Below are positions 3,001-60,199 of a DNA stretch of 64,000 bases, piece by piece. This DNA is from a bacterium (GTDB lineage Bacteria; Zhuqueibacterota; Zhuqueibacteria; Residuimicrobiales; Krinioviventaceae). Numbering within the stretch: the stretch's first letter is position 1; every line of letters starts with the position of its first letter. The stretch covers positions 128,001-192,000 of the forward strand of contig CAXXFV010000016.1 in NCBI GenBank assembly GCA_963674595.2, read 5' to 3'. A program made the translations under genes and the position numbers. The notes beneath the pieces were generated by a model that worked only from the letters and a program-made list of their open reading frames with translations, made no database searches and had not been told where the DNA came from.

Positions 3001-4404
3001 ACCTTGAATAATAATCATGGTGGTGTAAATACGGTTTATAGTGATTCCACTGGATTTTACCAGGCTAAAAGCTTACCGACCGATTATCCGTTTAATATAA
3101 AAATTGTGAAAAAAGGATATCAAACTATTGAACAAAACAGCGTTGTTATCGATTCATCGACACAGCTTGATTATAACCTGGAACCCTTGTACGGTGATAT
3201 TTCCGGTATTGTGTCGCAGGATGGTAATACGCCTGTGGCTGAAGTGATTGTTCATGCTGTTTCTCAACGATATTCATTTTCGGATACAACAGATCAAAAC
3301 GGTACATATCAATTCATTAATATACCGGCGGATTTGTACACTGTTACGGCTGAAAAAGTCGGTTACCGCTCTGATCCCATTGAAAAAAGTGCAGACTTGT
3401 GGTTGGGCGGCGATTTAACAAATTATAATTTTACTTTTATAGAGGCTATAGCAGCCAAATTGACCATTATCGGTCCGGAAAATGTAAAAAACACGGTCGT
3501 TCAAAAATACAATTTTACCGCCAAAACGGCCGATAATCGTGAAGCTGTTATCGATCCGTTATGGTCGGTTAATTTTACCCCGGCGGTTGAATTACTTGAT
3601 CAAAATGGTATCTTGGACCCGGCTAATGATTATATTGGGTCCGTTATAATAACCATTACCGATCAGTTTTCAGGGGCTTTTGCATCGCAAAAAGTATATA
3701 TATATCAGGAAGTGACGGATAAAACGCTTCAAAAAGAGTTGACCGATAAAAGAAATATTCAGCTCTATTTGCCGGACAATTCTGCGGAACAAAAAATCCA
3801 GTTACAGTTACGTAAACCTGATTTTTCAGATATAAGAAGAAACAAAAAAGATTATCAGGTTATCGGTGATATTTACCAGCTTTCACCGACGACTTATGTT
3901 TTTTCAAGTCCGCTGGAACTGGTGTTTTCTGTTCCTGAAGAATATTTGGATAAAAAAGTCGTTATTGGTAAATGGAATACAGACCGGTTAGAATGGGAAG
4001 TCATTACCAGTGAAAAGATTGGGGACGAACAGTTGCGCGTTTCCACGCATCAACTTGGACGATTTGCCATGCTGGCGCAGGCCGAACCGTTAAGCATTTC
4101 AGATATTAAAATTTTGCCGAATCCTTTTTCACCTTATACAGGTCCGGCTAAAATCAGTTATACTATTACTTCAAATACAACAACAACACCAATTGTAACG
4201 GCCAAAGTTTATAATATGGTTGGAGATTTGGTCAAGATATTAATTGACGCCAAGCCACAGGAACGTGGTGAAAACTTGGTGGAATGGGACGGTTTATCTG
4301 ATATGGGCCGTATGGCCATGAACGGCCGGTATTTGTTGCGTATGCAGGTAAAAGACATGACCGGCACAAAGGAAAAACTGGAAACCTTTGTGTTGATTAA
4401 ATAA
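52..4404 (+). CDS. Large secreted protein: about 11 carboxypeptidase-regulatory-like beta-sandwich repeats and a C-terminal FlgD-Ig/T9SS-like domain; probably 5'-partial
   Basis: Recurring 'xxxGxVx...V.GxxV...TDxxGxF....xxGxYxxxxxKxGY' units; C-terminus 'PNPFSP...VYNMVGDLVK...WDG...NGRY'; no signal peptide at the TTG start. Confidence 0.8.
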   Translation: MPLPDIDAPELISPAVNDTLSDEVITFSWKPVDDATAYHFYPFKIEEEADIETARGLWQDIIATTESQYNYPAKDLLVEGRYRWKVAAVADNGLEMASELRNFYYKASSATLNIRTYDDNNTPTAFGDDVALPRVNIAYKALQGVYTAMPLSTDLDGKRINYLVSPGIYQFTVEKDGYNTIIDTLTFVENQTYSLSFRLSSSPCTVTGRIVNQFEEGVGNANVTAEHTLRTDVLKSTMTDTRGYFSLPLLAGPYRLLISKEGYTSPAPHSFSIESDEIKAISPDLVLTKNANIITGTVVNTAQQPVYGVLVRLANDASEVSQRTNADGFFSFEVQNGTWTVSVEKDGFVSPASRQVTVTGNSNISLTPPFILQSNAAIIQGQVTDGLSPLAGVVVKAIPSAGTAFQTTTDDFGQFTLNVTSGTFTLYAEKTGYIFNQSIQATLSSGETLSGQKIVLSPAQSFVKGKVTTDGYTPLQGVKISNSGVSVLTNESGTYSLGVEPGTHSISAAKEGYISTSPDTVTVAPGQVVENINFILSPNASVIKGRVTFNGSGINHAQVNAVNSHTVTTFSDENGYYVLNVDAGEWQITVSKENYTTESKTGIVIGTAQTLLDVDFELSLNSGVVSGVVRSTNSSAAIAGVKVTVLENGFSTLTNQQGRFSFSFTPGEYHLNFEKTGFQSVQNKSVTVTVNQTSELTIDLQPMESQFNGTVLTQDDLPLKNVQILAVSGTDTTTTLTTTDGKFVLGVHAGTYQLTAVKSGYQDYSWPQNYSIANGETIQLPNAKLTSAFIKVAGNVRDASSTGIAEARITAKTTTGFSAQTQTSETGEFEFVDTSGQPILPAGTYTLIASKNGFQPDTLSNVNINSPVTDLAFQLIKNTGAVKGIVYLDNVALAGATVTAVASTSKKSFSTVSQTNGRFEISGLVSGTYKVKAVFTGASVPEEQVIDASSGTDVGIYLTSNKGHLYGTIKNAAFNTVINQASITLNNNHGGVNTVYSDSTGFYQAKSLPTDYPFNIKIVKKGYQTIEQNSVVIDSSTQLDYNLEPLYGDISGIVSQDGNTPVAEVIVHAVSQRYSFSDTTDQNGTYQFINIPADLYTVTAEKVGYRSDPIEKSADLWLGGDLTNYNFTFIEAIAAKLTIIGPENVKNTVVQKYNFTAKTADNREAVIDPLWSVNFTPAVELLDQNGILDPANDYIGSVIITITDQFSGAFASQKVYIYQEVTDKTLQKELTDKRNIQLYLPDNSAEQKIQLQLRKPDFSDIRRNKKDYQVIGDIYQLSPTTYVFSSPLELVFSVPEEYLDKKVVIGKWNTDRLEWEVITSEKIGDEQLRVSTHQLGRFAMLAQAEPLSISDIKILPNPFSPYTGPAKISYTITSNTTTTPIVTAKVYNMVGDLVKILIDAKPQERGENLVEWDGLSDMGRMAMNGRYLLRMQVKDMTGTKEKLETFVLIK

Positions 4405-5324
4405 TGAGGCTATGGATGAGATTTCTTTTCTACATTTTTATTGTTTTAATTTCATGTTTGCCGGTAGCGGCTGACATTCCTGCTGCTTACGTTGACATTG
4501 GATTTGGAGCGCGTCCGATGGGTATGGGCGGTGCCTACACGGCTTTGAGTAATGACATCAATGCCATGTTTTGGAACCCGGCAGGAATGACATTTATACA
4601 GGGCAGCCAGGTAACGGCCATGTATACAAAACAATTTGGACTTATTCCCTATGGTTTTGCAGCCTATGGCGGCCAATTTTATGGCAATTATGCCGGACTC
4701 GGATTTATAACGTCCGGGAATGACGTTCTGCGTGAAACAACGTTTTTGGCAAGTTATGCTATCAAGTTTTTTATTCCCTATATAGGTACAACGCGCCTTG
4801 GTGCAAATGTGCGATACCGACGGTCCAGTTTTGGAAACAATCAGGACGGTGGTGAATTCCGAAGTCAGGGAGATGCTTCCGGATTTGGTGTTGATGCCGG
4901 TGTTTTATGGGTCCTTAATCCGAAAACGTCTTTTGGGATTTTTGGCAGAGACCTTTTTAATGCCATGTATTACAACAATACCACCCGGGATGTCAGTTAT
5001 TCTGAAAGTATTCCCCGTACTTTGGTGTTCGGTTTAGCCCGTTCTATTCGACAGGGTGCGTTTTTAACGCTGGATTGGGAACAGGCCTTATATTCGGATA
5101 CTTTTAACAAGGTGCATGTAGGTACGGAAATTCAGGTTTTTCAGCTTATATTTTTGCGCGGTGGATTTTGGCAAAATGTGGAAGGTGATATCAACAGAAA
5201 TTACAGCGCCGGAATGGGACTGAATTATACAGCCCGCCGCGTTGCCGTACAATTTGATTTTGCCTATTTGTTTAATGATTTAGCCAATACACCCAGAGTT
5301 TCGTTAACGGTTTTTTACAAGTAA
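4404..5324 (+). CDS. PorV/PorQ (UPF0164, FadL-like) outer-membrane beta-barrel protein
   Basis: Signal peptide, then 'GARPMGMGGAYTALSNDINAMFWNPAG' and amphipathic strands ending 'FDFAY...RVSLTVFYK'; 1-nt overlap with the upstream stop. Confidence 0.8.
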   Translation: MRLWMRFLFYIFIVLISCLPVAADIPAAYVDIGFGARPMGMGGAYTALSNDINAMFWNPAGMTFIQGSQVTAMYTKQFGLIPYGFAAYGGQFYGNYAGLGFITSGNDVLRETTFLASYAIKFFIPYIGTTRLGANVRYRRSSFGNNQDGGEFRSQGDASGFGVDAGVLWVLNPKTSFGIFGRDLFNAMYYNNTTRDVSYSESIPRTLVFGLARSIRQGAFLTLDWEQALYSDTFNKVHVGTEIQVFQLIFLRGGFWQNVEGDINRNYSAGMGLNYTARRVAVQFDFAYLFNDLANTPRVSLTVFYK

Positions 5325-8658: not shown

Positions 8659-8710
8659 TTGAAATTTTCTGAAAACTGTGTTAGATTCCATTTTGGTATT
8701 AATTTGGTAT
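8659..8710 (+). promoter_or_regulatory. Candidate sigma70 promoter and operator of the toxin-antitoxin operon
   Basis: TTGAAA-17 nt-TAGATT, then TTTGGTAT direct repeats at 8692-8699 and 8703-8710. Confidence 0.45.
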
Positions 8711-8728
8711 AAGAATGTGAGGTTTCAT

Positions 8729-8971
8729 ATGCCGGCAATAACTTTAAAAAATATTCCAACAGATTTGTATGATGAAATAAGGAAAAATGCAGAGATAAAT
8801 TTTCGTAGTATTAATAGTGAAATAATATTTCGTCTAAAACAATCTGTCGAGCATAAGAGGATTGACCCCAAGTTATTAATTTCCAGGATTGAAGACCTTC
8901 AGGCCAAAATAAAAATCCCAAATCTAACTGATGAAATATTACATCAAGCTAAAAATATGGGGCGCCAATGA
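8729..8971 (+). CDS. FitA/Arc-like ribbon-helix-helix antitoxin
   Basis: 'MPAITLKNIPTDLYDEIRKNAEINFRSINSEII'; ATG 8729 after GAGG; ATGA overlap with the PIN toxin. Confidence 0.8.
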   Translation: MPAITLKNIPTDLYDEIRKNAEINFRSINSEIIFRLKQSVEHKRIDPKLLISRIEDLQAKIKIPNLTDEILHQAKNMGRQ

Positions 8972-9363
8972 TTGTTGTCGATACAAATGTGATCGCCTAT
9001 TTATTTATTAAAGGAGAAAAGACTGAAAGTGCCAAGTCATTGTTGTTGTACGATTCTGAATGGATAGCTCCCTTTTTATGGAAAAGTGAGTTTCGAAATA
9101 TACTTGCGCTGTATTTAAGAAAAAAATATTTAAGATTTGACGACGCTTTATTAATATTAAATGAAGCAGAAAATTTTATGAGTGAAAATGAATATGAAGT
9201 TAATTCAAAAGAAATTTTGGAGCTTGTAAATAATTCGAATTGTTCAGCCTATGATTGTGAATTTGTAGCTTTGGCAAAAAGATTAAATCTTAAATTATAC
9301 ACGTTGGATAAAAAAATATTTAAAGAATTTCCAGAATTTGTAAATTATATCAATGATTTTTAA
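8968..9363 (+). CDS. vapC: VapC-family PIN-domain toxin
   Basis: 'MIVVDTNVIAY...EFRN...SAYDCEFVALA...LYTLDKK' acidic PIN residues. Confidence 0.88.
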   Translation: MIVVDTNVIAYLFIKGEKTESAKSLLLYDSEWIAPFLWKSEFRNILALYLRKKYLRFDDALLILNEAENFMSENEYEVNSKEILELVNNSNCSAYDCEFVALAKRLNLKLYTLDKKIFKEFPEFVNYINDF

Positions 9364-29064: not shown

Positions 29065-29664
29065 TTAATTGTTTTCGGCAAGATAATTTGTTATTGTCGA
29101 ATCATATTGACTTGTTCGCTTAAAAGCCGCCGTTGCCAGTTTTTTACGCGTTTCAAGGGAAACTGTTCCATCATTTTCGAGTTCCGTGATTATGCCGGCA
29201 TACTGTTCCGGATTTGTAACAACAGCAACACCGGGAAAATTTTTTGCCGATGCACGGATCATACAAGGACCGCCTATATCAATGTTTTCCAGGGCATCAT
29301 CCAAAGTAACATCCGGTTTAGCAATGGTTGCTTCAAAAGGATATAAATTCACAACGACCATATCAATAGGTGTAATATTGTGACTAATCAATTCCTGCAT
29401 TTGACCGGCATCATTTCGTTTGGCGAGAATGCCGCCGTGGATGTTCGGATGCAGCGTTTTTACACGTCCGCCTAAAATTTCCGGAAAATTGGTTACATCA
29501 GAAACAGGTGTCACCGGAATGTTGTTTTCTTTCAAATGACGGGCTGTTCCTCCGGTCGATAAAATTTCTACATTGTTTTTAACCAGGATTTTCACAAAGT
29601 CTAAAAGTCCGGTTTTATCATAAACGCTTACCAGCGCACGTTTTATTTTTATTTTATCTGTCAT
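29065..29664 (-). CDS. purH: Stand-alone IMP cyclohydrolase (N-terminal MGS-like half of PurH)
   Basis: '[11 protein letters not shown]', 'STGGT', 'GRVKTLHP', 'IDIGGP'; stops at 199 aa with no transformylase domain. Confidence 0.9.
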
Positions 29665-35059: not shown

Positions 35060-35668
35060 TTATTTTTCTGTAACTAGTTTAGAATTTTTGGGTGCCTTTT
35101 TTCCCCTTTTAGGAATTAATTCCTGATGCAGGAAATAATATGTTATTAATGAAGATGGTATGAGGATAATGGATATCCACATGGTGATGATGTTTAACGG
35201 ATACAAATTTGCCGTATAACAAAATGTAACGGCTAAAAATGAAGATAGAGTAATTTTTCCCAAGAGGTTCGACTCGACGACGATACGTTTTTTTGAAATA
35301 ACATATATTCCGGCAATGAGAATAGTAATATCACGTCCTATAACAAAAAAGGCAAATATATAGGGAAGCCCTTTATAAGCTGCCAGTGCCAGCATAATGA
35401 CGGCTACGTTTATCTTGTCCACCAGTGGATCCAGCATTCGTCCCAACTGAGAACGTTGATTTAACTTTCGTGCAAAATATCCGTCAAAATAATCTGTAAG
35501 ACCGGATAAAATCATAGCAAACAAGGCTATTATATTTCCTGTATTTGTGTTTAGTTTTAGAAAATAAACAATAACAGGTATAAATAAAAGTCTCGCAATT
35601 GTTAAAATATTTGGAACACCAAAATAATGCTGGTCGTCCTTTACTATTTCAAATAAGCCGATTTTCAT
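35060..35668 (-). CDS. CDP-alcohol phosphatidyltransferase (PgsA-like)
   Basis: 'PNILT..R', 'TDYFDGYFARKLNQRSQLGRMLDPLVDK'. Confidence 0.9.
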   Translation of the reverse strand: MKIGLFEIVKDDQHYFGVPNILTIARLLFIPVIVYFLKLNTNTGNIIALFAMILSGLTDYFDGYFARKLNQRSQLGRMLDPLVDKINVAVIMLALAAYKGLPYIFAFFVIGRDITILIAGIYVISKKRIVVESNLLGKITLSSFLAVTFCYTANLYPLNIITMWISIILIPSSLITYYFLHQELIPKRGKKAPKNSKLVTEK

Positions 35669-35676
35669 AAAATCCT

Positions 35677-36846
35677 CTAGGAAAATGCTTTTAACGCATC
35701 CATTATCAATGATGGTTTTTTGAATAATGCGGATTTGAAAATATTAAAAAGTGTTCTTTTTCCTACTGGTAATTTTAACAGAATATTTGCTGTTTCTTCA
35801 AGGTCATCATCAGTCATTTTAAAGACATAATTTTTTAATTTATAGAATAGTTTGTTTTTGTTGCCTTCAGCATTATACCATTGTTTTGCGTATTCTTCCA
35901 ATCTTTTTTTGGAAACATCGTTTTCCTGAACAGCTTTTGCAGCGACCTGACCGGCAATTTTTGCAGCGATCATTCCGTTAACAATTCCACCACCGGATAC
36001 AGGATTTACCTGATGCGCGGCATCACCAACAAGCATTAATCCATCTGCAACGATTTCATCAAGTGTTGCGGAACAGGGCACACCACCGGCAACTGTTGTT
36101 AAAATAGCCGCTTTTGGAAAATGTGTTTTTAAAAATTTATCCAAATAATAAATTGGCGGCTTTTCTTTTGCATAAATACCAGAGATTCCCAAACCAACAT
36201 TGGCCAAACCGTTTCCTTTAGGGAATATCCATATATAACCGCCGGGAGCCATGTCTTTACCAAAATACATGTGACAATAGTTATCATTTACGTCAATATT
36301 TTGTGCTGTTACCTGGGCACATGTTTCCATATCAGCCATTGAAGTGGATGTTTTAAGTCCGGCCCAGCGACCAACCCGGGATTCCAAACCATCCGCACCA
36401 ATGACAATTTTCGCTTTTATTTCATATTTTTCACCCAAATGTTCAACTTTACATCCGCACACCGTGCCGTTGTCAAATAACAAATCATAAACATATGCTT
36501 TTGTCAATACGTCGGCACCTTCTTTTGCCGCTATTTGTGCAAGGTCATAATCAAAACGTTTGCGGTCAAGAATATAACCGACTTCATTGCTGTCTATCTG
36601 GACGGTTTGTCCAGATGGTGAATTAAGAGTTATGCCGGTTATTTTTTTCGCAATCCAGGATGGCTCCAAATCTACAACAGTCAGAATCCCTTTTTCACCA
36701 ACACCTTCGGCGCAACGTACCGGAATTCCGATTTCTCTGTCTTTTTCCAAAAGCAGTACTTTGGCCCCGTTTTTGGCGGCAAAACGAGCGGCTGTAGAGC
36801 CTGTTGGTCCAGCGCCTACAATAACAATATCATAACTGCTATTCAT
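35677..36846 (-). CDS. Geranylgeranyl reductase family flavoprotein (archaeal DGGGPL-reductase-like)
   Basis: 'VGAGPTG', 'PVRCAEG', 'PGGYIWIFPKG', 'GDAAHQVNPVSGGGI'. Confidence 0.88.
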   Translation of the reverse strand: MNSSYDIVIVGAGPTGSTAARFAAKNGAKVLLLEKDREIGIPVRCAEGVGEKGILTVVDLEPSWIAKKITGITLNSPSGQTVQIDSNEVGYILDRKRFDYDLAQIAAKEGADVLTKAYVYDLLFDNGTVCGCKVEHLGEKYEIKAKIVIGADGLESRVGRWAGLKTSTSMADMETCAQVTAQNIDVNDNYCHMYFGKDMAPGGYIWIFPKGNGLANVGLGISGIYAKEKPPIYYLDKFLKTHFPKAAILTTVAGGVPCSATLDEIVADGLMLVGDAAHQVNPVSGGGIVNGMIAAKIAGQVAAKAVQENDVSKKRLEEYAKQWYNAEGNKNKLFYKLKNYVFKMTDDDLEETANILLKLPVGKRTLFNIFKSALFKKPSLIMDALKAFS

Positions 36847-37018
36847 CTTTTACCTCCAAAGCACGAAGGGGACATATATAGACACAGTTTTTGCATACCG
36901 TGCACTTTTCCGTAATTGTCAGTTGTGTCTCTGATAACTCTATAGCATCATGTGGACAAACAGCAACGCATGTTCCGCAGAAATCACAAAGTTTTTGTTC
37001 CCATTTAATTTGTTCCAT
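36839..37018 (-). CDS. 2x[4Fe-4S] ferredoxin (59 aa)
   Basis: 'CDFCGTCVAVCP' and 'CTVCKNCVYICP'; ATG 37018 after AAGGA; overlaps the GGR start. Confidence 0.88.
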   Translation of the reverse strand: MEQIKWEQKLCDFCGTCVAVCPHDAIELSETQLTITEKCTVCKNCVYICPLRALEVKDE

Positions 37019-37040
37019 ATATAATCCTTTTGTTATAATA

Positions 37041-38009
37041 TCACTTTCGTAAACTCGGGTAATCGATTCCAAATCTGCGTTTATAATACCACTTTGAAAA
37101 AAAGAATAAAAAAGCAATAAAAACAAGGTATCCGGGGAATTTATAACAAATTGTTAAAGATAAAAACAGAGCTGCAAATTTATTAGCCCGTAAAATTTCT
37201 TTAATAGATTTTTTGTTTACAGCAAGGGCAAAAAACGGGAGTATAAGAACTGTTGGTATCAGAGCAACAATATCTTTCATCCATAATGCTGCCAGGACGG
37301 CGATAATATCTGTTACAAGCCCTGCCCAAAGAGTAAAATTCATTCCATATTTTACAGCAATCGTTTTTTTATTGACAGCTTTATCACCTTCAATATCAGG
37401 AATTGTTGTAAAAAAGTAAACGGCTATCATTCCCAATATATAAGGGGTTGCCTGTTGAAGCATTTTTAAGTTCAGGGTCCCTTGTATCAACCAGCCAAAC
37501 GCAAAAACGATATAAAAACCTAAAATATTGATTATCAACCCGCCAATCGGCTTGTCCTTAAACTTGAATGGTTTACAGCTATAGAACCAACCTGTTATAA
37601 GAAAAGCAAGTAATGAAACGATCGCCAGGCTAAATTTAAGCCATGACAAAATAATAAATGGAACGATAACCAATGTAATCGTTTCAATATATGCATTTTT
37701 AAGACTAATATCACCATTAGCAATTAAAAAAAGTTTATTGTTTAGTTTATCTGTTTCAACGTCTTCTATTTGATTTAATAAAAAAGAAGCTCCCATTGCG
37801 AGGGTCAACAGACCAATAGTAATAATAAATTTAATGTTTAAGGTGCCGATTGTAAAAGTGTGTAATAAAGTACTGTTATGGTCATCAAATCTTAACTGGG
37901 CCCAATATCCTACCAGGGATATTGTCCACACAGGAAAGAAAAGAGTTGGTCTTAGCACAAAGAAATAATCTAATATTTTTAAAAATTTTAATTTTTTTTC
38001 AGAGTTCAA
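37041..38009 (-). CDS. UbiA-family prenyltransferase
   Basis: Multiple TM helices; Asp-rich motifs 'NQIEDVETD' and 'PDIEGDK...KTIAV'. Confidence 0.85.
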   Translation of the reverse strand: MNSEKKLKFLKILDYFFVLRPTLFFPVWTISLVGYWAQLRFDDHNSTLLHTFTIGTLNIKFIITIGLLTLAMGASFLLNQIEDVETDKLNNKLFLIANGDISLKNAYIETITLVIVPFIILSWLKFSLAIVSLLAFLITGWFYSCKPFKFKDKPIGGLIINILGFYIVFAFGWLIQGTLNLKMLQQATPYILGMIAVYFFTTIPDIEGDKAVNKKTIAVKYGMNFTLWAGLVTDIIAVLAALWMKDIVALIPTVLILPFFALAVNKKSIKEILRANKFAALFLSLTICYKFPGYLVFIAFLFFFSKWYYKRRFGIDYPSLRK

Positions 38010-47899: not shown

Positions 47900-50800
47900 G
47901 TGGAGACTCCTTTGAAAAAGCTGTATCTTGTACCATTTTTGACCTTGTGTTTGTTTACTTTCCAATTAAAAGCGGCAGAAAAATCTGAGAAAAAATATTC
48001 AGTCCATGCTTATGGTTACAGTTCGGAACTCGTATCACCGGCTCCCAGAGCAGACAGAGGGATACATTATGAAAATGTATCTTTTGAGCAAAATATGCTG
48101 AAAAAACGCAGCCAAACTGATGAAAATAGTAATGAAATAGTTTATTCTTTTTCCAAAGGACGCACTTTACTCGGCCGTGTCGAGGTTGTGTTGTCACCTC
48201 TTGTTGCTGATTCTGATTCTCTAAAGTTAGCGCTTGTGTTTTACAACGCCTCTACTGATCAGGAAAAATCACTTGATCTTTCTTCTTTTAATGATAATGG
48301 TTATATAAACACGGAATTTGAGGGGGTTTATGCATCCGAGGTGACTGTTGTTGTTTCCGGTGTGCCGGACGATCAATCAAATCCTATTCAGGATATGAAT
48401 CTTTATGAAATTGTATTAAGCGATCGTTACCGCATTATGCTTTTGGGTGATTCTATAACAGCCGGTGCCCTGGCAACGGATTATAAAGGTTACCGTCACA
48501 TGCTGTATGATCGTCTGCGTGCAAATAATGTTGAAGTGGATTTTGTGGGTGATTTTGGCGAAGCTCCTTATGAGGGACATTTTGAAGGTGGTCGAAAAAT
48601 TTATGATTTTTATCCACAGTCCATCGGGGGCCGCGCACGTGCAGATGCCACATGGGCAATGAATACCTTTCGGCCGCAAATGGTTGTTATTCATTTGGGT
48701 ACAAATGATTTGGGGGATGGTGTCAACAATATTATACCTTATGATAATGAAGAAGGATTCAGTACTTCGGTTTCCGGGCGAATGGCGACGTTGGTTGATT
48801 ATTTGCTGGATTGGACAACAGATGACGGCGGTTTGGAAAAAATTGTTGTCAATTTAATTACTCCCATCAAAGTTTCACGTGACAGCGCCATGAATTTATA
48901 CACCATGGAAGTGGCCAGACTTGTTCGTGATTTTAAAACCGGTGCTATAACCGGCAAGCCGGAACCGGTTTATATAAGTGATGTTTATTCGCATCTTCGC
49001 GGTCATCCTGATTTGTGGAGCGATGCCTGGAATAAACTGTTGGGAGATGCATTGCATCCCACAACGCGCGGTCATCAGTTTTTGACAGATGCGCTTTATC
49101 CGATAGTTGAAGAATTGGTGACCGGACAAAAAAGAAAGTTCAGTAATGCTACATGGGACCTTGGGATTGGCGGTCTCGACCATCTTTTTGATTTTAAAGG
49201 GGTGGCGGTAGCAGATGTTACAGATCATTACGGAGATGATATTTATATCAGCCGTGTAACAGGGAATTCTGATTTTTCAGAAGATTTGTTTTTTGAAAGC
49301 AAGGCCAACATTCCGTTTAAAGAAAATGCCGATGATTATAATATTGAGGATAAAAAGTTTAGTCAAAGTGCAATTTTTGTTGATGTTGACAATGATGGAG
49401 ATTTTGATCTGTTAAACGGTCACTCTCCCGGTCAAAATTATCTTTACAAGCAGTCTGCTGACCATACCTTTACAAATGTTACCAGTCAGGCCAATATTCA
49501 AAATTATAATCGTTATTCCAAAGCATTGCTGGCATTTGACTGTGAAAATGACGGCGACATGGATTTGCTGGTTATTAATTCAAGAGAGCAAAATGAATTT
49601 TATATCAATCAGGGTGACGGCACATTCGAACTTGAAAATCGTGGAATACTTGAAACAAATGAATCGTCAATTACAACAGAATCCGCCTCTGCCGCCGATT
49701 TTGATATGGACGGCGACGTTGACGTATATATAGCAAAACGGGAAGTTGCTAATAAACTATTTGTAAATGACGGTAATGGCAATTTTACGGAAAAAGCAAG
49801 CCTTGCCGGTGTTAATCTGGTCCATAAAAGCAACGGTGTTGTATGGGCTGATTTGGATAACGACGCAGACCTGGATCTGCTGGTTTCTGTAAATGATTTT
49901 GGCAGCGATTCCAACCCAAAGTTACATGTGTACAAGAATCAGGGTGATGGCACATTTCAGGATGTTACATCTTCTGTGAACATTCCGATGAATGCTTTTT
50001 CGCCCATCGTCGCTGATTTTGATAATGACTCGGACCTGGACATTGTAACAACCGATGAGGTTGATTATGGTTCTTATTATGAAAATTTGGGTAATTGGCA
50101 ATTTCAAAAGGTAGAAAATACCGGTGCGGAAATTTTCGGCGGTGATGTGCGCGGTGCAAGCGTTTTGGATTTTAATCAGGACGGTAATTTGGATTTTGTT
50201 GCTGCCCGTTCCGATGTTTTTAACATTGCTATAGAAAACAATAACGATAATGGTAATAATTATATTAAAGTAAGCGCTTACGGGCCGGATGGCAACATAG
50301 GAGGATTTGGTACAAAGATCTGGATTTTTGAGCCGGGAAGTTTGGGAGATTTTCAACACCTGTTGGGTTTCAGGGAAATTATGTCCACAACAGGGTATTT
50401 GTCGCAATCTTCTCCGGTGCAGCATTTTGGGTTGGCTGGTTTTTCTCAGGTTGATATTCTGGCTGGCTTTACTGATGGAACATTTTTGGCCAAAAGACAT
50501 GTAAATGCCAATCAAACCATTACCATTGAACCGGAAGTACCGGTACTGCCGAACCTTATTCCGGATAATATATCATTGTTAAGCGGCAATAATATTTCCG
50601 GCACTGTAACGCAGCAGTCTAGTGAGCCTATTGTTGTTTCTGTTCAGGATGCTGATAATCAGCCGGTCCCGGGAATGAATGTAGAATTTGAAATTGTGTC
50701 CGGTGATGCACAAATAATAACACCTTTAAATTCCAGTCAAAATATTTGGGTGGAATGTGAAAGCGCCGAGTTGTCCGGTAATATGCGCTGGGTTTATGAT

Positions 50801-53800
50801 GCCGGCTGTTCCGGCGGCGGTTTTGTCATGTTACCGAAATTTTTAGGAGGAACCGGTGCCGTCCAGTCAAGTGTTTCCCTTAGTTCCGCAGGTAATTACT
50901 CGGCCTGGATGCGGATTAAAAATGTTAGTGATGGTTCTTTTATAAAAATTCAAATAGATAATCAATCTGAAAAGACGATAGACTTGTCGTCGAATGGCGA
51001 CTGGCAATGGCTGAATGCATCTGTTAGCGGACAGCGTTTATTCTGGAATTTACAGTCTGGCATTCACTCTGTAAAAATAACAACAAATAGTGTAAATTTA
51101 CAGATTGATAAATTATTAATAACATCGGATGATGCCTATGTTCCCGATGGCTTGGGCACGGAAGCCGGTATTTTACCTCATCTCTCTGACCGTGACGGAT
51201 TGTCAAAACGTTATATTCAATTCGGTCAGCAGGCGGGTCCTGTTGTTATTGAGGCTGTTTTAGAATATAACGGTGCTTCTGTAAACGGAAGTCCTGTTCA
51301 ATTTGATGCACGTTCTCTGGCTGACAAAGCTTCAACTATTGTTAAACAAAGTGGTGACATGCAAATTGGCATAATCGGTGAACCTTTAACGGATCCCCTG
51401 GTTGTTGCCGCTGTTGATGGGTTCCAAAACCCTGTTTTTAATAAGAGAATTAATTTTTCCGTGGTATCCGGCGGAGGTACATTAAATCCTGATGGTTTTG
51501 TTTTTACCGATTCTACCGGTTTGGCACAGACTTATTATACACCCGGTGATATGAACAGTGCCCAGGTTATTAAAGCCGAAGCGGATTCCGTAACCGGTTC
51601 ACCGCTTACGTTCAACGTCATGGTCCAGGGAATCGCTTCAAAACTGACCTATGTTTCGGGCGACAGTCAGGAAACAAAAGTCATGACGGTTTTACCTGCA
51701 CCCGTAAGAGTAAAAATAGTGACCGATGAAAATGAACCGGTTGTTAATTATCCTGTTCAGTTTAATGTGACAGATCCGGGAGCCGGACTGTTGGAGCAAT
51801 CGCCTGCGCAAAATAAAAAGATTGCAGGTATATCGATTGATAATGTTCAAAGCGAAAACGATACGAACCTGGTCGTACCGACCAATTCTCAGGGGATTGC
51901 TGAAATTTATTGGCAGCTTGGGCAATATTCCGGTGAACAGCATATCAATATCGTGGCGGACCTTTTAAACGGATCGCCCATGTCTTTAAAAGCCGTTGCC
52001 CTTGCCTCGGACCCGGCCCTGCTGATGCCGATATCCGGTAATCAACAGCAGGCGGTTATTAATACGGAACTGGAAAATCCTTTCAAGGTAAGGCTGCTGG
52101 ATGAATATGGAAACAGTGTGCCTGATTATGATATAAAATTTGAATCCAAACAGGGCGGCGGACTGTTAAGCGGGGAAAATAGTATTACACTTCCTTCGGA
52201 TGAAAACGGAGAGGCTTTTGCTGTTTTGACACTTGGAACGCTGGCCGGAAAAAACGCCTATCTGGTTGAAGCGTCAGCGGTCCTGGACCAGACTGCCGTA
52301 CCTGGTTCTCCGGTACAATTTTATGCAACCGGTTTACCCGGTCAGGCGAAATATGCTGCAATTTTAAACGGAAATGCTCAATCAGATACAGTCAATCAAA
52401 CTTTACCCATACCTCTTCAGGTTAAAATAACGGATGAATATGAAAATGTCGTCCCCGGTTTTGATGTTGTTTTTCGAATAAATCAGGGAGACGGCCGCTT
52501 TGGTTCTGTTCAGGAGAAAACCGTTGCCACCGGTGAGAACGGTGTCGCTCAGGTTTTGTGGACGTTGGGCGTTAAAGTTGGTACTAATAATGCTTATGCT
52601 TTGTGTGACGGATTGATACCTAATTCATTGTTCTTTACAGCAAAAGGCAAAACAGGTATTCCCTTTAAACAAATATATATTGACGGAAATGATCAGTCGG
52701 GTCTTCAGGATATACAACTGTCAATTCCATTTCAGGTCCAGGTGACAGATTCTTTTGAAAATCCTGTTAAAAACCATCAGGTCCTTTATACGTTGAAGGA
52801 AGGAGGAGGCAATTTTAACGGAGAGAGCGATATATACGCCTTGACGGACAGTATTGGTGTTGCGCGTGCCTCGTTGACCCTGGGCAGCACCATTGGCGAT
52901 TCCAACCATGTTGTTTGGGCGCAAAGTTCTTTTAATGAAAAAGAACTGGAAAACAGTCCGATTGTTTTTTATGCCAGTGTTATTCACGGCATCCCTCATC
53001 GTTTGATACCTGTTTCAGTCGTCTCCGGTCTGTCGGGCGCCGTAAATAGCGAACTTCCGGACCCAATCGTTGTTAAGGTTGTTGGTCAGGAAAATCAACC
53101 CATTCCGGTGTTTCCTGTGGTGTTTCAGGTGACCGGCGGCGGAGGCCATTTCGCTGAAAATGATCAGGCAAGCCTTACGGTTTTAACAGATTATGATGGA
53201 CTCGCTTCTGCAAGATGGGTTTTGGGAAATGAATCTCTGCAAAATATTAGTGTGAACGCTGTTTACCAGCAACAAAATCTCATCGGTTCACCTTTACAGA
53301 TAAATGCCGTTGCTATTGTTACCCAGGCGAAATCAATTGTTGCTTCTTCTGAAATCAACCTTACAGGCAAAGCCGGACAGCCATTGTCCGCACCGTTGGC
53401 TGTGCGAACTGATGATGAATTTGGATTTCCGGTTTCCGGGCATCCTGTAACTTTTAGAATAGAACAGGGCAGCAGTTATTTTACAGAATCATCGGGTTCT
53501 GTGCTGAATGTAAATAGCGATAATCAGGGTTTGGCACAGGCAGCGTTGACGCTTGGTGGTGAGGTTGGTGAAAATACTCAAATTGTTCATGCCAAAGCCT
53601 ATGACCAAACAAATCAACTTTTGACCGGTGCACCGATTATTTTCTCTATAACAGTTGAACCGGGTTTGCCGGATGTCGAAAACACACAGGTTTCTGCCTT
53701 TTCTCCGGTTCCGGCGCGGGAAGACGTTTTTTCAACTGTAACGATAACTGTAATAGACAGTTTCGGCAATAAAATACCTGATCAACAAATTGAGTTATTG

Positions 53801-56320
53801 GCAGAAGGATTGCCTGTTGTTTTTGATCCGCAAAATGGTACGACTGATCAGAACGGAATTTTTACGTCCAACGTTACTTCTACACAATCCGGAGAAGTGC
53901 AAATTTCCGCCAGGGATGTGGCGAGTCAGCAGATTTTCACACAAAAAGCAACTATTCAATTTATAGAAACTCTGGCCAGTGCTGTGCAAATAATGGGCAG
54001 CCAAAACAGACTGGTTAATTTAAATTCATCTACCGGTGACCCCATATCTGTTCAGGTTGTCAATTCCGAAAACGCACCGGTTGCCAACTATCCCGTTTTT
54101 TTTACGGCACAAAGTGACAGTGTGTCAATTCCCGGAACCATGCCCTTATTTACGGATGAACAGGGCGTGGCACATACAGATATATTCGGCGGTGAAAAAA
54201 TTGGCAAAGCTTTGGTAAATGCAACTGCACCCGGTTTGCAAAACTCGCCCCTGACTTTTAGCGTTACAATTCAACAGCCTGAAAACGTTTCAATTTCAAC
54301 CGTTGGTGATGGTGTTTTTACCGGAGCGGTAAATACACTCCTGGATAGTTTGGAAATTAAAACACATGATCAGGATGGACGTGCTGTCGGACAAATTTCT
54401 GTTACTTTTCAGAATTTAAATACATTGTCGCTTGCTTTGGATTCTACAGGTGTTGTAACCAATGCCTATGGTAAAGCGAAAACCAGCGCCAGGTTAAAGG
54501 AAATTGCGGGCCAGGCACAAGTCACTGCTAAAATTAATGGAACATCCGAACAAACTCTTATCCTTGTAACTGTTTTACCTGATGCCCCTGAAGAGATACT
54601 AAAAATTTCAGGCGACCAACAAACCGGGTCCGTGGGTGATACAATGGATATACCTCTTAAAATTAAAGTTGTTGATCAGTTTGGAAACAGTGTTTCTCAA
54701 ATTCCTGTCTCTTTTAGTGTTTTACAGGGAGACGGAGAAATAATAGGCGATGTTGATCAGGTAACCGAAGAATCAGGAACTGCATTTGTTCAATATAAAT
54801 GCGGCAATACTCCGGGAACACATCAAATCAAGGTAGAATCCACTGCATTTGAGCATGATGAAACCATCTTTACAGTAAACGTTGTATCTGCCAATGCAAG
54901 CAAGATGGCAAAGCACGACGGTGATGAACAGGTAGGTGTTGTCAACCATCTTTTGAATCAACAGTTGCAGGTTCTTATAACGGATGACTTTGATAATCCT
55001 GTGGCTGATTATGAAGTTAGTTTTAATGCATCGCAAGGAACTTTGACGCCGGGTTCTCAGGTTTTAACGGATGAGAATGGTATCGCCGCTGTTCAATGGA
55101 AATTGGGTGAAGAAACAGGCCAACAGTATGTTTATGTTGTTAACTATGCTTTGCAACCTGCCTATTTGACTTTTTCCGCGACTGCTATTGAAAATCAGGC
55201 TCCAAGAATTTCCGCACCGGATAGTGTTTCAGTAAATGAAAAAGAGTTGTTACAGTTTGTTGTGACGGCAACCGATCCGGAAAACGATACTGTTACCGTT
55301 CGTGCTGTTGATCTTCCGCAAGGTGTTTCCTTTGATTCATTGGAAACCGGGACTGTTACCTGGACGCCCGATTATGATCAGGCTGGTGTTTATTATTTCA
55401 GGTTTATCGCTACAGACCAAACCGGTGCTTTTGTATCAAAAAACGTCAAAGTCAATGTTGCCAATGTCAACCGCAAACCCGTAATTATTGAAGATGAAAC
55501 AATTCCGGAGGATCGGAATTTGCCGGCACTGCAAATACCGGAAACCAAAAGATTTTATGTTGCGGCAAATGATGACGATGGTGATCCTTTACAATATATA
55601 TGGAACGTAAACGGAACCTTGTCCGGCACAGGTCCTGAATTTATTTTACAGTCTCAGCTAATGCAAACCGGAAATACCCTTGTTACAGCCGTTGTCTTTG
55701 ATCAACAAGATTCCGTAAAAACCACATGGCAGTTTGATATTGTTACATCGGTTGAACTTTCATATTTTAGCGGTAATCATCAACCCTTTCAGGGAATACA
55801 GCTTAAATGGGAAACACGTTCGGAACGAAACAATTCCGGTTTTTATATTCTCCGGTCTGTAAATGCGGATGGTGATTTTGAAAGCATTAGTCCGTTAATC
55901 AGCTCAAACAGCTCCGGTAAATATAAATTTGTTGATCAGCAGGTTGAAAACGGTGTTTGTTATTACTATTGTCTGCAAGATGTGCAATTAAATGGAAAAA
56001 AGAATACGCATGAAACTGTTATGATTGACCCGGCTGTTCCCCATGATTTTGCTTTGTTTCAAAATTACCCGAATCCATTCAATCCATCAACAACAATTCG
56101 ATTTCAGGTACCAAAAACTGTTCGTGTGTCATTACAAATTTATAATATTTTAGGTCAGCATGTAAAAACTCTTTCTGATAGAATATATAAAGCCGGATAT
56201 TTTAGTTTGGAATGGGACGGAACGAATAATTTCGAACAAAAAGTCGTTTCAGGCGTATATTATTTAAAAATGGATGCAGACACTTTTCAGGGAACTCAAA
56301 AGTTACTGTTATTAAAATAA
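47900..56320 (+). CDS. Giant secreted multidomain protein: SGNH/GDSL hydrolase, FG-GAP/ASPIC-UnbV propeller, CBM-like domain, about 12 invasin-type Ig repeats, cadherin-like domains, FlgD-Ig/T9SS-like C-terminal domain
   Basis: 'LGDSIT', 'HLGTND', 'DALHP'; six 'DxDxDGDxD'-type repeats; 'GYLSQS..QHFGL'; 'SGxxQ...TDxxGxA' repeats; 'QNYPNPFNPST...WDG...SGVY'. Start may be TTG 47912 (GGAG upstream). Confidence 0.85.
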   Translation: METPLKKLYLVPFLTLCLFTFQLKAAEKSEKKYSVHAYGYSSELVSPAPRADRGIHYENVSFEQNMLKKRSQTDENSNEIVYSFSKGRTLLGRVEVVLSPLVADSDSLKLALVFYNASTDQEKSLDLSSFNDNGYINTEFEGVYASEVTVVVSGVPDDQSNPIQDMNLYEIVLSDRYRIMLLGDSITAGALATDYKGYRHMLYDRLRANNVEVDFVGDFGEAPYEGHFEGGRKIYDFYPQSIGGRARADATWAMNTFRPQMVVIHLGTNDLGDGVNNIIPYDNEEGFSTSVSGRMATLVDYLLDWTTDDGGLEKIVVNLITPIKVSRDSAMNLYTMEVARLVRDFKTGAITGKPEPVYISDVYSHLRGHPDLWSDAWNKLLGDALHPTTRGHQFLTDALYPIVEELVTGQKRKFSNATWDLGIGGLDHLFDFKGVAVADVTDHYGDDIYISRVTGNSDFSEDLFFESKANIPFKENADDYNIEDKKFSQSAIFVDVDNDGDFDLLNGHSPGQNYLYKQSADHTFTNVTSQANIQNYNRYSKALLAFDCENDGDMDLLVINSREQNEFYINQGDGTFELENRGILETNESSITTESASAADFDMDGDVDVYIAKREVANKLFVNDGNGNFTEKASLAGVNLVHKSNGVVWADLDNDADLDLLVSVNDFGSDSNPKLHVYKNQGDGTFQDVTSSVNIPMNAFSPIVADFDNDSDLDIVTTDEVDYGSYYENLGNWQFQKVENTGAEIFGGDVRGASVLDFNQDGNLDFVAARSDVFNIAIENNNDNGNNYIKVSAYGPDGNIGGFGTKIWIFEPGSLGDFQHLLGFREIMSTTGYLSQSSPVQHFGLAGFSQVDILAGFTDGTFLAKRHVNANQTITIEPEVPVLPNLIPDNISLLSGNNISGTVTQQSSEPIVVSVQDADNQPVPGMNVEFEIVSGDAQIITPLNSSQNIWVECESAELSGNMRWVYDAGCSGGGFVMLPKFLGGTGAVQSSVSLSSAGNYSAWMRIKNVSDGSFIKIQIDNQSEKTIDLSSNGDWQWLNASVSGQRLFWNLQSGIHSVKITTNSVNLQIDKLLITSDDAYVPDGLGTEAGILPHLSDRDGLSKRYIQFGQQAGPVVIEAVLEYNGASVNGSPVQFDARSLADKASTIVKQSGDMQIGIIGEPLTDPLVVAAVDGFQNPVFNKRINFSVVSGGGTLNPDGFVFTDSTGLAQTYYTPGDMNSAQVIKAEADSVTGSPLTFNVMVQGIASKLTYVSGDSQETKVMTVLPAPVRVKIVTDENEPVVNYPVQFNVTDPGAGLLEQSPAQNKKIAGISIDNVQSENDTNLVVPTNSQGIAEIYWQLGQYSGEQHINIVADLLNGSPMSLKAVALASDPALLMPISGNQQQAVINTELENPFKVRLLDEYGNSVPDYDIKFESKQGGGLLSGENSITLPSDENGEAFAVLTLGTLAGKNAYLVEASAVLDQTAVPGSPVQFYATGLPGQAKYAAILNGNAQSDTVNQTLPIPLQVKITDEYENVVPGFDVVFRINQGDGRFGSVQEKTVATGENGVAQVLWTLGVKVGTNNAYALCDGLIPNSLFFTAKGKTGIPFKQIYIDGNDQSGLQDIQLSIPFQVQVTDSFENPVKNHQVLYTLKEGGGNFNGESDIYALTDSIGVARASLTLGSTIGDSNHVVWAQSSFNEKELENSPIVFYASVIHGIPHRLIPVSVVSGLSGAVNSELPDPIVVKVVGQENQPIPVFPVVFQVTGGGGHFAENDQASLTVLTDYDGLASARWVLGNESLQNISVNAVYQQQNLIGSPLQINAVAIVTQAKSIVASSEINLTGKAGQPLSAPLAVRTDDEFGFPVSGHPVTFRIEQGSSYFTESSGSVLNVNSDNQGLAQAALTLGGEVGENTQIVHAKAYDQTNQLLTGAPIIFSITVEPGLPDVENTQVSAFSPVPAREDVFSTVTITVIDSFGNKIPDQQIELLAEGLPVVFDPQNGTTDQNGIFTSNVTSTQSGEVQISARDVASQQIFTQKATIQFIETLASAVQIMGSQNRLVNLNSSTGDPISVQVVNSENAPVANYPVFFTAQSDSVSIPGTMPLFTDEQGVAHTDIFGGEKIGKALVNATAPGLQNSPLTFSVTIQQPENVSISTVGDGVFTGAVNTLLDSLEIKTHDQDGRAVGQISVTFQNLNTLSLALDSTGVVTNAYGKAKTSARLKEIAGQAQVTAKINGTSEQTLILVTVLPDAPEEILKISGDQQTGSVGDTMDIPLKIKVVDQFGNSVSQIPVSFSVLQGDGEIIGDVDQVTEESGTAFVQYKCGNTPGTHQIKVESTAFEHDETIFTVNVVSANASKMAKHDGDEQVGVVNHLLNQQLQVLITDDFDNPVADYEVSFNASQGTLTPGSQVLTDENGIAAVQWKLGEETGQQYVYVVNYALQPAYLTFSATAIENQAPRISAPDSVSVNEKELLQFVVTATDPENDTVTVRAVDLPQGVSFDSLETGTVTWTPDYDQAGVYYFRFIATDQTGAFVSKNVKVNVANVNRKPVIIEDETIPEDRNLPALQIPETKRFYVAANDDDGDPLQYIWNVNGTLSGTGPEFILQSQLMQTGNTLVTAVVFDQQDSVKTTWQFDIVTSVELSYFSGNHQPFQGIQLKWETRSERNNSGFYILRSVNADGDFESISPLISSNSSGKYKFVDQQVENGVCYYYCLQDVQLNGKKNTHETVMIDPAVPHDFALFQNYPNPFNPSTTIRFQVPKTVRVSLQIYNILGQHVKTLSDRIYKAGYFSLEWDGTNNFEQKVVSGVYYLKMDADTFQGTQKLLLLK

Positions 56321-59113: not shown

Positions 59114-60199
59114 TTAATGATGGAATAACCGGATTCCCGTATTAACGAAAGTAATACCATATTGATTGCATAATTCTATAATATCATTATCCCGAATAGA
59201 GCCCATGGGAGAAGCTATATATTTTATACCGAATTTGTGGGCAAATTCGATATTGTCTTTATGCGGAAAAAATCCATCAGAGCATAAACACAGATCGTCA
59301 CATTGCGCCAGGCTGTTTTGTCCCTGGAATAGTTTTGCTCTTTCCTGTTCCAAAATCTGGTCTTTTTCAGTTTTTGATGTTTTTTCGGGGAAGGTAATAT
59401 TTTCAAAAGTTAATAAAGTTTTTTGATACCATTTTTGTGCTTTGGTGATTGCCAGTTCCGTACACAAAATTCTGGATTGCTGACCCGAGCCTATGCCGAT
59501 AACCTGTCCGTCTTTAACAACACAAATGGAATTGGATTGTGTGTATTTTAATGTAATCATGCCGATAACAAGGCTCTGTTTAATTTTATCCGGAATCTGT
59601 TTGTTGGATGTTACGATGTTTGTTAAACAAGAATCGTCCAGTTTAATTGTGTTTCTTTTTTGTCTGATTTTTATTCCAAAAACAGTTCTTTCTTCAATTT
59701 CTTCGGGAACATAATCTTTATTAATTTTTAAAATAACATAATTGCCCTTTTTCTTTGATTTCAAAATATCCAGTGCTTCATCGTCATAGTCCGGGGCTAT
59801 AATGCCGTCAGAAACTTCTGATTTGATAAGCGTTGCGGTTTCCGTATCAACCGTTCGGCTTAATGCTATGAAATCTCCAAAAGAGGCCAGACGGTCAGCG
59901 CCGCGGGCTTTTAAATAAGCGCTTGTCAAGCCCGAAGATATTTCTTTGGTATATAGATATGATTTTTTTTCGTTTGGTAAAAAATCGCAGCCAACGGCCG
60001 CACCGGACGGCGTTACGTGTTTAAATGATGTTGCGGCTATAATGTTTGCATATTCATCCAACTCTTTAACCAGTTGCCAGGCGTTTAATCCATCGAGAAT
60101 GTTGATGATACTTGGGTTGCCATTTAAAATTTTCAGATTGTCATTGTCAATAAATTCAGCAAAATCCTGGTTGGGGTTCATACCATATTTTAACTTCAT
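59114..60199 (-). CDS. Stand-alone AICAR transformylase (C-terminal half of PurH)
   Basis: 'LKYGMNPNQ', 'SFKHVTPSGAAVG', 'SFGDFIALS', 'KYTQSNS', 'GQQSRI', 'SDGFFP', terminal 'RLFHH'. Confidence 0.92.
   Translation of the reverse strand: MKLKYGMNPNQDFAEFIDNDNLKILNGNPSIINILDGLNAWQLVKELDEYANIIAATSFKHVTPSGAAVGCDFLPNEKKSYLYTKEISSGLTSAYLKARGADRLASFGDFIALSRTVDTETATLIKSEVSDGIIAPDYDDEALDILKSKKKGNYVILKINKDYVPEEIEERTVFGIKIRQKRNTIKLDDSCLTNIVTSNKQIPDKIKQSLVIGMITLKYTQSNSICVVKDGQVIGIGSGQQSRILCTELAITKAQKWYQKTLLTFENITFPEKTSKTEKDQILEQERAKLFQGQNSLAQCDDLCLCSDGFFPHKDNIEFAHKFGIKYIASPMGSIRDNDIIELCNQYGITFVNTGIRLFHH

Follow-up and report, generated by a model that had tools for sequence, protein, structure and literature searches.

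A conserved UbiA-family prenyltransferase and a PgsA-like transferase flanking a ferredoxin–geranylgeranyl reductase pair: a putative accessory module of bacterial archaeal-like ether-lipid synthesis

Which part of a lipid pathway is encoded by four genes lying between purF and ftsY in a bacterium, and is their prenyltransferase the digeranylgeranylglyceryl phosphate synthase (DGGGPS) of archaeal-type lipids? FCB-group (Fibrobacteres–Chlorobi–Bacteroidetes) bacteria provide the principal natural test case for stable membranes of 'mixed' archaeal/bacterial type. To our knowledge, only the geranylgeranylglyceryl phosphate synthase (GGGPS) and DGGGPS steps have been verified so far, in one phylum. 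The window analyzed here (64,000 nt, the whole stretch G000:C16:128001-192000) belongs to a 6.6-Mb genome of 37 contigs that is 97.6% complete. On its minus strand, the purF-to-ftsY interval contains four tightly packed, co-oriented open reading frames (ORFs) predicted to encode a UbiA-family prenyltransferase (37041..38009, 322 aa, PF01040; hereafter window-type UbiA), a 2x[4Fe-4S] ferredoxin (36839..37018 within ORF 36839-37126, 59 aa, Fer4 PF00037), an FAD-dependent geranylgeranyl reductase (GGR; 35677..36846, 389 aa, TIGR02032, GGR_cat PF22578) and a PgsA-like CDP-alcohol phosphatidyltransferase (35060..35668, 202 aa, PF01066). With moderate confidence, we take these four genes to belong to the 'archaeal-like' isoprenoid ether-lipid pathway known from FCB bacteria, as an accessory module with a third prenyltransferase in addition to GGGPS and DGGGPS.

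The pathway itself has been described before. In Ca. Cloacimonetes, GGGPS and DGGGPS were reported to be present and co-localised, together with Euryarchaeota-like GGRs, and the metagenome-assembled genomes (MAGs) were reported to lack CarS and glycerol-1-phosphate dehydrogenase (G1PDH); expression of the Cloacimonetes GGGPS and DGGGPS in E. coli yielded unsaturated phosphatidylglycerol (PG)-archaeol (Villanueva et al., ISME J 2020, PMC7852524; cited here, like the other articles given by PMC number, from parts of the text). GGGPS and DGGGPS orthologues were reported from all 12 FCB phyla surveyed by Coleman et al. (2019; PMC6431249), whose table lists candidate division KSB1. The closest homologues of the genes studied here come from records titled KSB1, Zhuqueibacterota and Calditrichota; one 40% identical homologue bears the title Calditrichota bacterium GD2. 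Since archaeal-style lipid genes of FCB bacteria, GGR included, have thus been published (PMC7852524, PMC6431249, as far as the cited parts go), the presence of such genes is not new. Neither the window-type clade nor the combination of this UbiA with a PgsA-like gene, with the ferredoxin–GGR pair inserted between the two, was found in the titles and abstract openings searched, and a term search of PMC11868695 gave no match; the supplements of PMC7852524 and PMC6431249 may contain them. The clade and the arrangement thus appear, within that search, to be the unreported part of a known concept.

The remainder of the pathway was found elsewhere in the genome. A GGGPS gene on contig C15 scored over two curated cut-offs (NF003198, 296 bits compared to 247), and a DGGGPS-type UbiA gene was found on C4. 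The initial annotation had not seen GGGPS in the window and had held that its absence from the genome would speak against ether lipids; the gene on C15 removes this objection. GGGPS, a DGGGPS-type UbiA and a GGR, which together define the FCB 'archaeal-like ether lipid' gene set, were all present in this genome. It also contained two polyprenyl synthases and one CdsA, and a genome search found no CarS, which the initial annotation had likewise noted as absent from the window. This content resembles the FCB gene set (PMC7852524, PMC6431249, parts cited) in that genes of a full fatty-acid lipid outfit are joined by those for GGGPS, for a UbiA of DGGGPS type and for a GGR of archaeal type, and also in the absence of CarS and the presence of CdsA and PgsA (PMC7852524). 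However, the genes for GGGPS (contig C15) and for the DGGGPS-type UbiA (contig C4) are apart, whereas they are co-localised in Cloacimonetes, and in this locus the ferredoxin–GGR pair is flanked by an extra UbiA, which is divergent, and by a second gene of PgsA-like type, neither of which is mentioned in the cited parts. A further difference concerns G1PDH, which is reported missing from Cloacimonetes MAGs in the cited part of PMC7852524; this genome contains a G1PDH-like gene below the cut-off.

The G1PDH-like gene (C20:13670-15025 of G000; L036 1435-2790) encodes a 452-aa protein with an iron-containing alcohol dehydrogenase fold, for which the best model was that of NAD(P)-dependent glycerol-1-phosphate dehydrogenase (NF002022). 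The search for a G1P dehydrogenase suggested initially thus gave a match at 168.7 bits, well below the cut-off of 413, and the gene is a possible source of G1P. G1PDH has been considered rare in this lineage. A gene for a DeoR-like regulator adjoins the G1PDH-like gene.

The window-type UbiA showed 85 bits to PF01040 (gathering cut-off 34.2) and contains the motifs NQIEDVETD, YSCKPFK (Y-x5-K) and DIEGD, so that the catalytic motifs are intact. Residues N79, D83, D87, D205 and D209 were invariant in an alignment of 40 homologues, in which an N-terminal signature, LDYFFVLRPTLFFPVWT, and a C-terminal one, FFFSKWYYKxRF...YPSF, were also conserved. As these catalytic motifs are those described for the M. 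jannaschii DGGGPS, the protein is probably an active enzyme. An AlphaFold2 model (pLDDT 91.8) showed the UbiA fold, and a Foldseek search with it gave 6m31, the M. jannaschii DGGGPS, as top match (E 5.9e-7); 6m31, 4tq3 and 4od4 spanned E 6e-7 to 4e-5. Since 6m31, AfUbiA and ApUbiA were about equally similar, this comparison confirms the superfamily and does not separate DGGGPS from AfUbiA and ApUbiA.

The initial annotation had taken the window-type UbiA for the DGGGP synthase, and this part of it did not hold. The protein (PRENYLTRANSFERASE) was far under the cut-offs of all NCBIfam equivalogs (best 48 bits compared to 269), including those of DGGGPS type (NF009521, 37.3/296; NF009522, 23.7/353; NF009523, 48/269 bits), and models for DGGGPS, chlorophyll synthase and homogentisate phytyltransferase scored it about equally. 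As a single sequence it gave no match to 6m31 in PDB even at E<=10, the only match being chlorophyll synthase (3.4e-5). A profile of the 40 homologues matched DGGGPS at 2.8e-10, chlorophyll synthase at 4.4e-10 and DPPR synthase at 1e-7, and scans of the individual members showed a similar spread, with weak matches to the MenA model in 38 of 40. By contrast, the UbiA paralogue on C4 reached 217.9 (NF009521), 164.9 (NF009522) and 243.1 bits (NF009523), matched 6m31 at 2.6e-42, and has homologues named geranylgeranylglycerol-phosphate geranylgeranyltransferase by NCBI and JGI; it is about 21% identical to the window-type UbiA. Judged from these scores, the window-type UbiA is not the DGGGPS orthologue, and that role fits the C4 gene. 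Compared to the M. jannaschii DGGGPS, the window-type UbiA shares the fold and the N-x3-D-x3-D, Y-x5-K and D-x3-D motifs and has it as best profile and Foldseek match, but the two showed only 19% identity in the structural alignment, no match was obtained with the single sequence, and chlorophyll synthase was an equal match.

Six UbiA-family matches were found in the genome. Besides the window and C4 genes, these are a MenA on C15 (142.5 bits, cut-off 102), a DPPR-synthase-like gene on C8, a weakly MenA-like gene on C29 and a 25-bit match, under the Pfam cut-off, in a 563-aa ORF on C18. A quick maximum-likelihood tree of 48 rows included 25 window-type and 17 DGGGPS-type sequences, the MenA, MenA-like and DPPR-like paralogues of this genome, and UbiA, MenA and CyoE of E. 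coli. In this tree, from which archaeal reference rows were absent, each of three groups was monophyletic, namely the window-type, the DGGGPS-type and the MenA sequences (SH-aLRT 97, 98, and 98, respectively), and E. coli UbiA and CyoE fell outside the MenA clade. The tree covers no ChlG/BchG, homogentisate phytyltransferase, MqnP, LyeJ or archaeal DGGGPS rows, and its deep nodes are poorly supported and affected by long branches. Within this sampling, the phylogeny proposed at the outset as a check of the UbiA placed it apart from the quinone prenyltransferases, in a clade of its own. The window-type UbiA is thus, as far as models and tree can tell, a separate conserved clade that is neither of DGGGPS type nor a quinone prenyltransferase; it may lie within the 'smaller' Actinobacteria/FCB clade of the DGGGPS tree of Coleman et al. 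(PMC6431249). The family comprises about 374 representative clusters at E<=1e-30, and its members carry only the name 'UbiA family prenyltransferase' or automatic quinone-transferase names. Look-alikes in the ESM Atlas were found only in generic 'UbiA prenyltransferase' clusters, most commonly in Fibrobacterota, WOR-3 and Zixibacteria. Heme O synthase was rejected as a role for the window-type UbiA: the 97.6%-complete genome showed no COX1 and the protein no match to a CyoE model. As no heme-copper oxidase was found in the genome, such an enzyme is not needed.

The reductase and the ferredoxin agree with the initial annotation of an archaeal-style GGR beside a ferredoxin. The window GGR passed the family model TIGR02032 (243.5 bits, cut-off 158.8), contains the domains GGR_cat (PF22578, 98 bits) and FAD_binding_3, and showed the predicted 'CAEG' and 'PxGYxWxFP' motifs as IPVRCAEGVG and PGGYIWIFP in its translation. 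Matches in PDB included the T. acidophilum digeranylgeranylglycerophospholipid reductase 3oz2 (2.7e-81) and, at about 1e-29, the Sulfolobus GGR. The closest equivalog models were likewise those of archaeal digeranylgeranylglycerophospholipid reductases, although none of the three cut-offs was reached (NF041160, 300.2/780; NF041080, 209.5/580; NF041385, 96/700 bits), and the MenJ model gave 78 bits. The window GGR is, by these matches, of the archaeal (Thermoplasma/Archaeoglobus-like) type. It was the sole GGR-family gene above the family cut-off in a scan of its own genome, the runner-up reaching 38 bits.

The ferredoxin contains two CxxCxxCxxxCP motifs and matched Fer4 (PF00037) in two stretches with 49 bits; the alignment of its homologues starts no earlier than the ATG at 37018, so that the protein has 59 aa. 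Homologues with 43-76% identity were found directly upstream of GGR in related loci: the ferredoxin was immediately 5′ of GGR in all 10 genome loci having a GGR, and between UbiA and GGR in 39 of the 40 metagenome loci in which a GGR is present within a complete UbiA–ftsY span, with inserts separating ferredoxin and GGR in some. The GGR of M. acetivorans is reported to require a ferredoxin encoded beside it (PMC9385802), and synteny of GGR with a 4Fe-4S gene is described as frequent among Euryarchaeota, with T. acidophilum and A. fulgidus as examples (PMC9385802, PMC10821996). Since the ferredoxin lies beside GGR as in Euryarchaeota, we read the bacterial pair as the same module, with a small 4Fe-4S gene adjoining GGR in all of these organisms. 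The order differs, as the ferredoxin is located downstream of GGR in M. acetivorans according to the cited part of PMC9385802 and upstream, overlapping the GGR start, in the window. By this analogy, the pair is the archaeal-type saturating module of the genome, and its only one, in which the window ferredoxin presumably donates electrons to GGR.

The fourth gene belongs to the CDP-alcohol transferase family, as had been noticed at first, but its type is bacterial. It showed 116 bits to PF01066 (CDP-OH_P_transf; cut-off 22) and contains the motif D-G-x2-A-R-x8-G-x3-D-x3-D within DGYFARKLNQRSQLGRMLDPLVD. Compared to TIGR00560 (pgsA) it scored 104.7 bits, just short of the cut-off of 109.1, whereas a canonical PgsA on C20, 33% identical to the window copy, reached 124.8 bits. 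In total, six CDP-alcohol transferases were found in the genome, among them the canonical PgsA, a PssA, a Pcs-like and an AIPS/PIPS-like protein. With the canonical copy on C20, the window transferase is predicted to be a second, PgsA-like paralogue of bacterial type. It shares motif, length and best model (TIGR00560) with bacterial PgsA, and differs by lying under the cut-off and by being paired with UbiA across two phyla.

Contiguity and common orientation of the four genes, as well as the 22-nt gap between UbiA and ferredoxin, the 8-nt overlap of the ferredoxin stop with the GGR start (ATGAATAG) and the 8-nt gap between GGR and the transferase, agreed with the initial annotation. The flanking genes are purF (TIGR01134, 521 bits), whose stop lies 41 nt from the UbiA start, and ftsY (TIGR00064, 369 bits), which follows the transferase after 16 nt and overlaps rimO by 4 nt. 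The entire purF–rimO run is equally packed (gaps <=41 nt), the four genes are not set apart from their neighbours, and a scan of 32.5-40.5 kb of the window found no terminator-like sites on the minus strand. Thus, the word 'cassette' describes what the four genes contain and not a bounded unit. A domain scan of the remainder of the window showed housekeeping genes and no further lipid genes.

The genes of the module were found to be widespread in the phylum of the window, in which 151 genomes were searched, including G000 itself and the unpublished G088 and G144; 105 of them were of high quality (>=90% complete, <=5% contaminated). With the unpublished G153, which was also included in this study, removal of these genomes shifts each count by no more than one. 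Window-type UbiA (E<=1e-10) was present in 141/151 genomes (100/105 of high quality), GGGPS (E<=1e-10) in 143 (103), DGGGPS-type UbiA (E<=1e-25) in 141 (103) and the window's GGR (E<=1e-40) in 128 (87). A hand count gave 111 genomes with all four genes. Of the 122 genomes with both UbiA and GGR, 111 had the two genes within a distance of 3 kb, several of the 11 exceptions being located at contig ends.

Synteny was compared in 94 related loci, 14 from genomes and 80 from metagenomes; at least two of the metagenome pairs look like mutual duplicates. Among the 62 loci that span UbiA to ftsY, the arrangement UbiA–ferredoxin–GGR–CDP-OH transferase was the most common (32), followed by UbiA–ferredoxin–GGR (17), UbiA alone (9), UbiA–CDP-OH transferase (3) and UbiA–GGR (1). 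G152 and the unpublished G153 have the cluster without the ferredoxin–GGR pair and carry other GGR-family genes elsewhere in the genome. A second phylum was reached via locus L034 (record title 'Bacteroidetes bacterium') and was represented by 61 genomes, including G151. Window-type UbiA was found in 6 of these, GGGPS in 28, DGGGPS-type UbiA in 21 and both of the latter in 18; all six holders of window-type UbiA were among these 18, and five of the six kept the order purF–UbiA–CDP-OH transferase–ftsY, without ferredoxin and GGR. The chance of such an overlap is about 3e-4 for independent genomes, and is only indicative here as the genomes are kin. From this comparison, we regard window-type UbiA and the PgsA-like gene as a pair of greater age, common to the second phylum. 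As the pair was found there only alongside GGGPS and DGGGPS, and as the genome studied here has the published FCB complement, we favour the accessory-module reading.

Some of the clusters in relatives contain further genes. Between UbiA/ferredoxin and GGR, these were either defence genes (restriction-modification pairs or TIR genes) or a gene for a HAD hydrolase. The defence genes, found in the related metagenome loci L046 (7014-9076), L094 (8103-9940), L100 (8187-10021) and L082 (7388-9092), encode NotI-like and MjaI-like endonucleases, accompanied by a D12 methylase and an N6/N4 methylase, respectively, and, in three cases, TIR-domain proteins. The HAD-family gene was located between ferredoxin and GGR in one lineage (L094 7278-8063, L100 7378-8097, L097 1706-2416); it may encode a lipid phosphate (PGP-type) phosphatase of the module. 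Between GGR and ftsY, a gene for a TPR and CsgG-like lipoprotein (Pfam) was present in L072 (6236-7255), L075 (8475-9500) and L110 (8366-9328), and L029 showed a translated ORF (3765-4763) at the position of the CDP-alcohol transferase.

From gene identities, paralogy, synteny and co-occurrence we infer the following substrates and order of steps. GGGPS (C15) and the DGGGPS-type UbiA (C4) would form unsaturated di-O-geranylgeranylglyceryl phosphate, which, in a genome without CarS, would be activated by CdsA. The window PgsA-like transferase would then attach a glycerophosphate head group, and saturation of the isoprenoid chains would fall to the window GGR, supplied with electrons by its neighbour, the 2x[4Fe-4S] ferredoxin. 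The window-type UbiA would be a third membrane prenyltransferase of the ether-lipid pathway, using a prenyl-diphosphate donor; candidates for its acceptor are a GGGP isomer, a substrate of different chain length and a lipid head group. Of the ether-lipid synthesis proposed initially, the GGR, the GGGPS and the placement away from quinone enzymes thus stand, and the DGGGPS role of the window-type UbiA does not. We also raise, tentatively and as a rather speculative extension, that the window-type UbiA performs an as yet undescribed third prenyl transfer in bacterial 'archaeal-like' lipid synthesis, acting together with the PgsA-like enzyme and yielding a product that is saturated by the ferredoxin–GGR pair. 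If so, the product would be an isoprenoid glycerolipid of a sort not known from Archaea or from other Bacteria, for example a lipid that is head-group-prenylated or tri-alkyl, one of mixed chain length or a diether of glycerol-3-phosphate (G3P) configuration.

Several observations weigh against an accessory module. Each element of the cluster can be absent in some genomes: GGR gave no match at E<=1e-40 in 23/151 genomes and was absent in the larger part of two families; GGGPS, DGGGPS-type UbiA and GGR occurred without window-type UbiA in one genus, represented by G024 and G063 (each 94% complete); and G099 (96% complete) and G129 contained window-type UbiA and GGGPS and no match to DGGGPS-type UbiA or GGR. 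A GGGPS or DGGGPS-type gene was present in the neighbourhood of none of the 94 loci, the G1PDH-like match is far under its curated cut-off, and the co-occurrence counts were drawn from related, non-independent genomes. Restriction-modification and TIR inserts between UbiA/ferredoxin and GGR indicate that tight co-translation is not required, and since purF, ftsY and rimO belong to the conserved synteny too, adjacency may reflect inherited order and not function. A corresponding alternative is that the four genes form no functional unit: the ferredoxin–GGR pair would saturate isoprenoid lipids made elsewhere, the transferase would serve diacyl lipids as nothing more than a second phosphatidylglycerophosphate or cardiolipin-type synthase, and UbiA would have an unrelated role in membrane prenylation. 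We regard this as a possible, though doubtful, account. It would explain why the whole purF–rimO block is conserved, with purF directly upstream of UbiA in 12/14 and 60/80 loci, why ferredoxin–GGR and the CDP-OH transferase are gained and lost independently of each other and the cluster is broken by defence genes in relatives, and why the transferase scores best with bacterial pgsA and a ClsA-type model. It is less easily reconciled with a UbiA/CDP-OH transferase pairing that is kept at about 30% identity in the second phylum, or with the finding that the UbiA there occurs only with GGGPS and the DGGGPS type (6/6 holders, 18/61 overall).

The two other alternatives assign the window-type UbiA to a known enzyme class. 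That it is itself a DGGGP synthase, either as an isoenzyme or as the true one, with the C4 gene doing something else, seems improbable to us. The M. jannaschii enzyme is indeed the best PDB match of the family profile (2.8e-10) and the best Foldseek match, the N-x3-D-x3-D, Y-x5-K and D-x3-D motifs are those given in the cited part of PMC9385802, and G099 and G129 combine GGGPS and window-type UbiA without a DGGGPS-type match; however, chlorophyll synthase scores like DGGGPS with the same profile (4.4e-10), the single sequence misses 6m31 at E<=10 where the C4 paralogue reaches 2.6e-42, the equivalog scores are low (37.3 vs 296 and 23.7 vs 353 bits), the tree separates the window-type clade, and both UbiA genes are retained in nearly all genomes. 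Still less credible, and in our view very unlikely, is quinone or polyprenyl side-chain chemistry of the MenJ kind, in which UbiA would prenylate a naphthoquinone or another aromatic head and GGR would saturate the side chain. The GGR family does include menaquinone reductases (MenJ, 78 bits with the window GGR), weak MenA-model matches occur in 38/40 members of the UbiA family, and the window-type clade meets the MenA and DPPR-like rows at a node that the tree leaves unresolved. But the genome already has a MenA above cut-off (142.5 vs 102 bits), no model of 4-hydroxybenzoate-type UbiA or of MqnP matched the window-type UbiA at E<=0.01, its best MenA model gave 31 vs 264 bits, and, for the GGR, lipid reductases (300 and 277 bits) are much closer matches than MenJ; besides, the genome search found no heme-copper oxidase, so that a heme O synthase role is not called for.

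In a large FCB phylum, the sole GGR and its ferredoxin thus sit beside a conserved prenyltransferase and a dedicated PgsA-like enzyme. The locus offers a concrete four-gene set for existing E. coli reconstitution systems. If the window-type UbiA has its own product, the locus points to a possible new lipid class or sediment biomarker source; should it prove to be an unrelated enzyme or redundant with DGGGPS, the locus would be no more than a further case of the published pathway.

Other features of the window were noted outside the purF–rimO run. PurH appears to be split into two minus-strand genes about 30 kb apart: the first (29065-29664; 199 aa) contains the MGS (IMP cyclohydrolase) domain and the first 59 positions of the AICARFT model, and the second (59114-60199; 361 aa) covers AICARFT model positions 78-311. 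On the plus strand (8678-9363), genes for an Arc-like DNA-binding protein and, after it, a PIN-domain protein have overlapping ends and look like a type II toxin-antitoxin pair. Two very large plus-strand ORFs were also found, one at 52-4404 encoding a 1450-aa protein with 11 CarboxypepD_reg-like repeats, and one at 47900-56320 encoding about 2800 aa.

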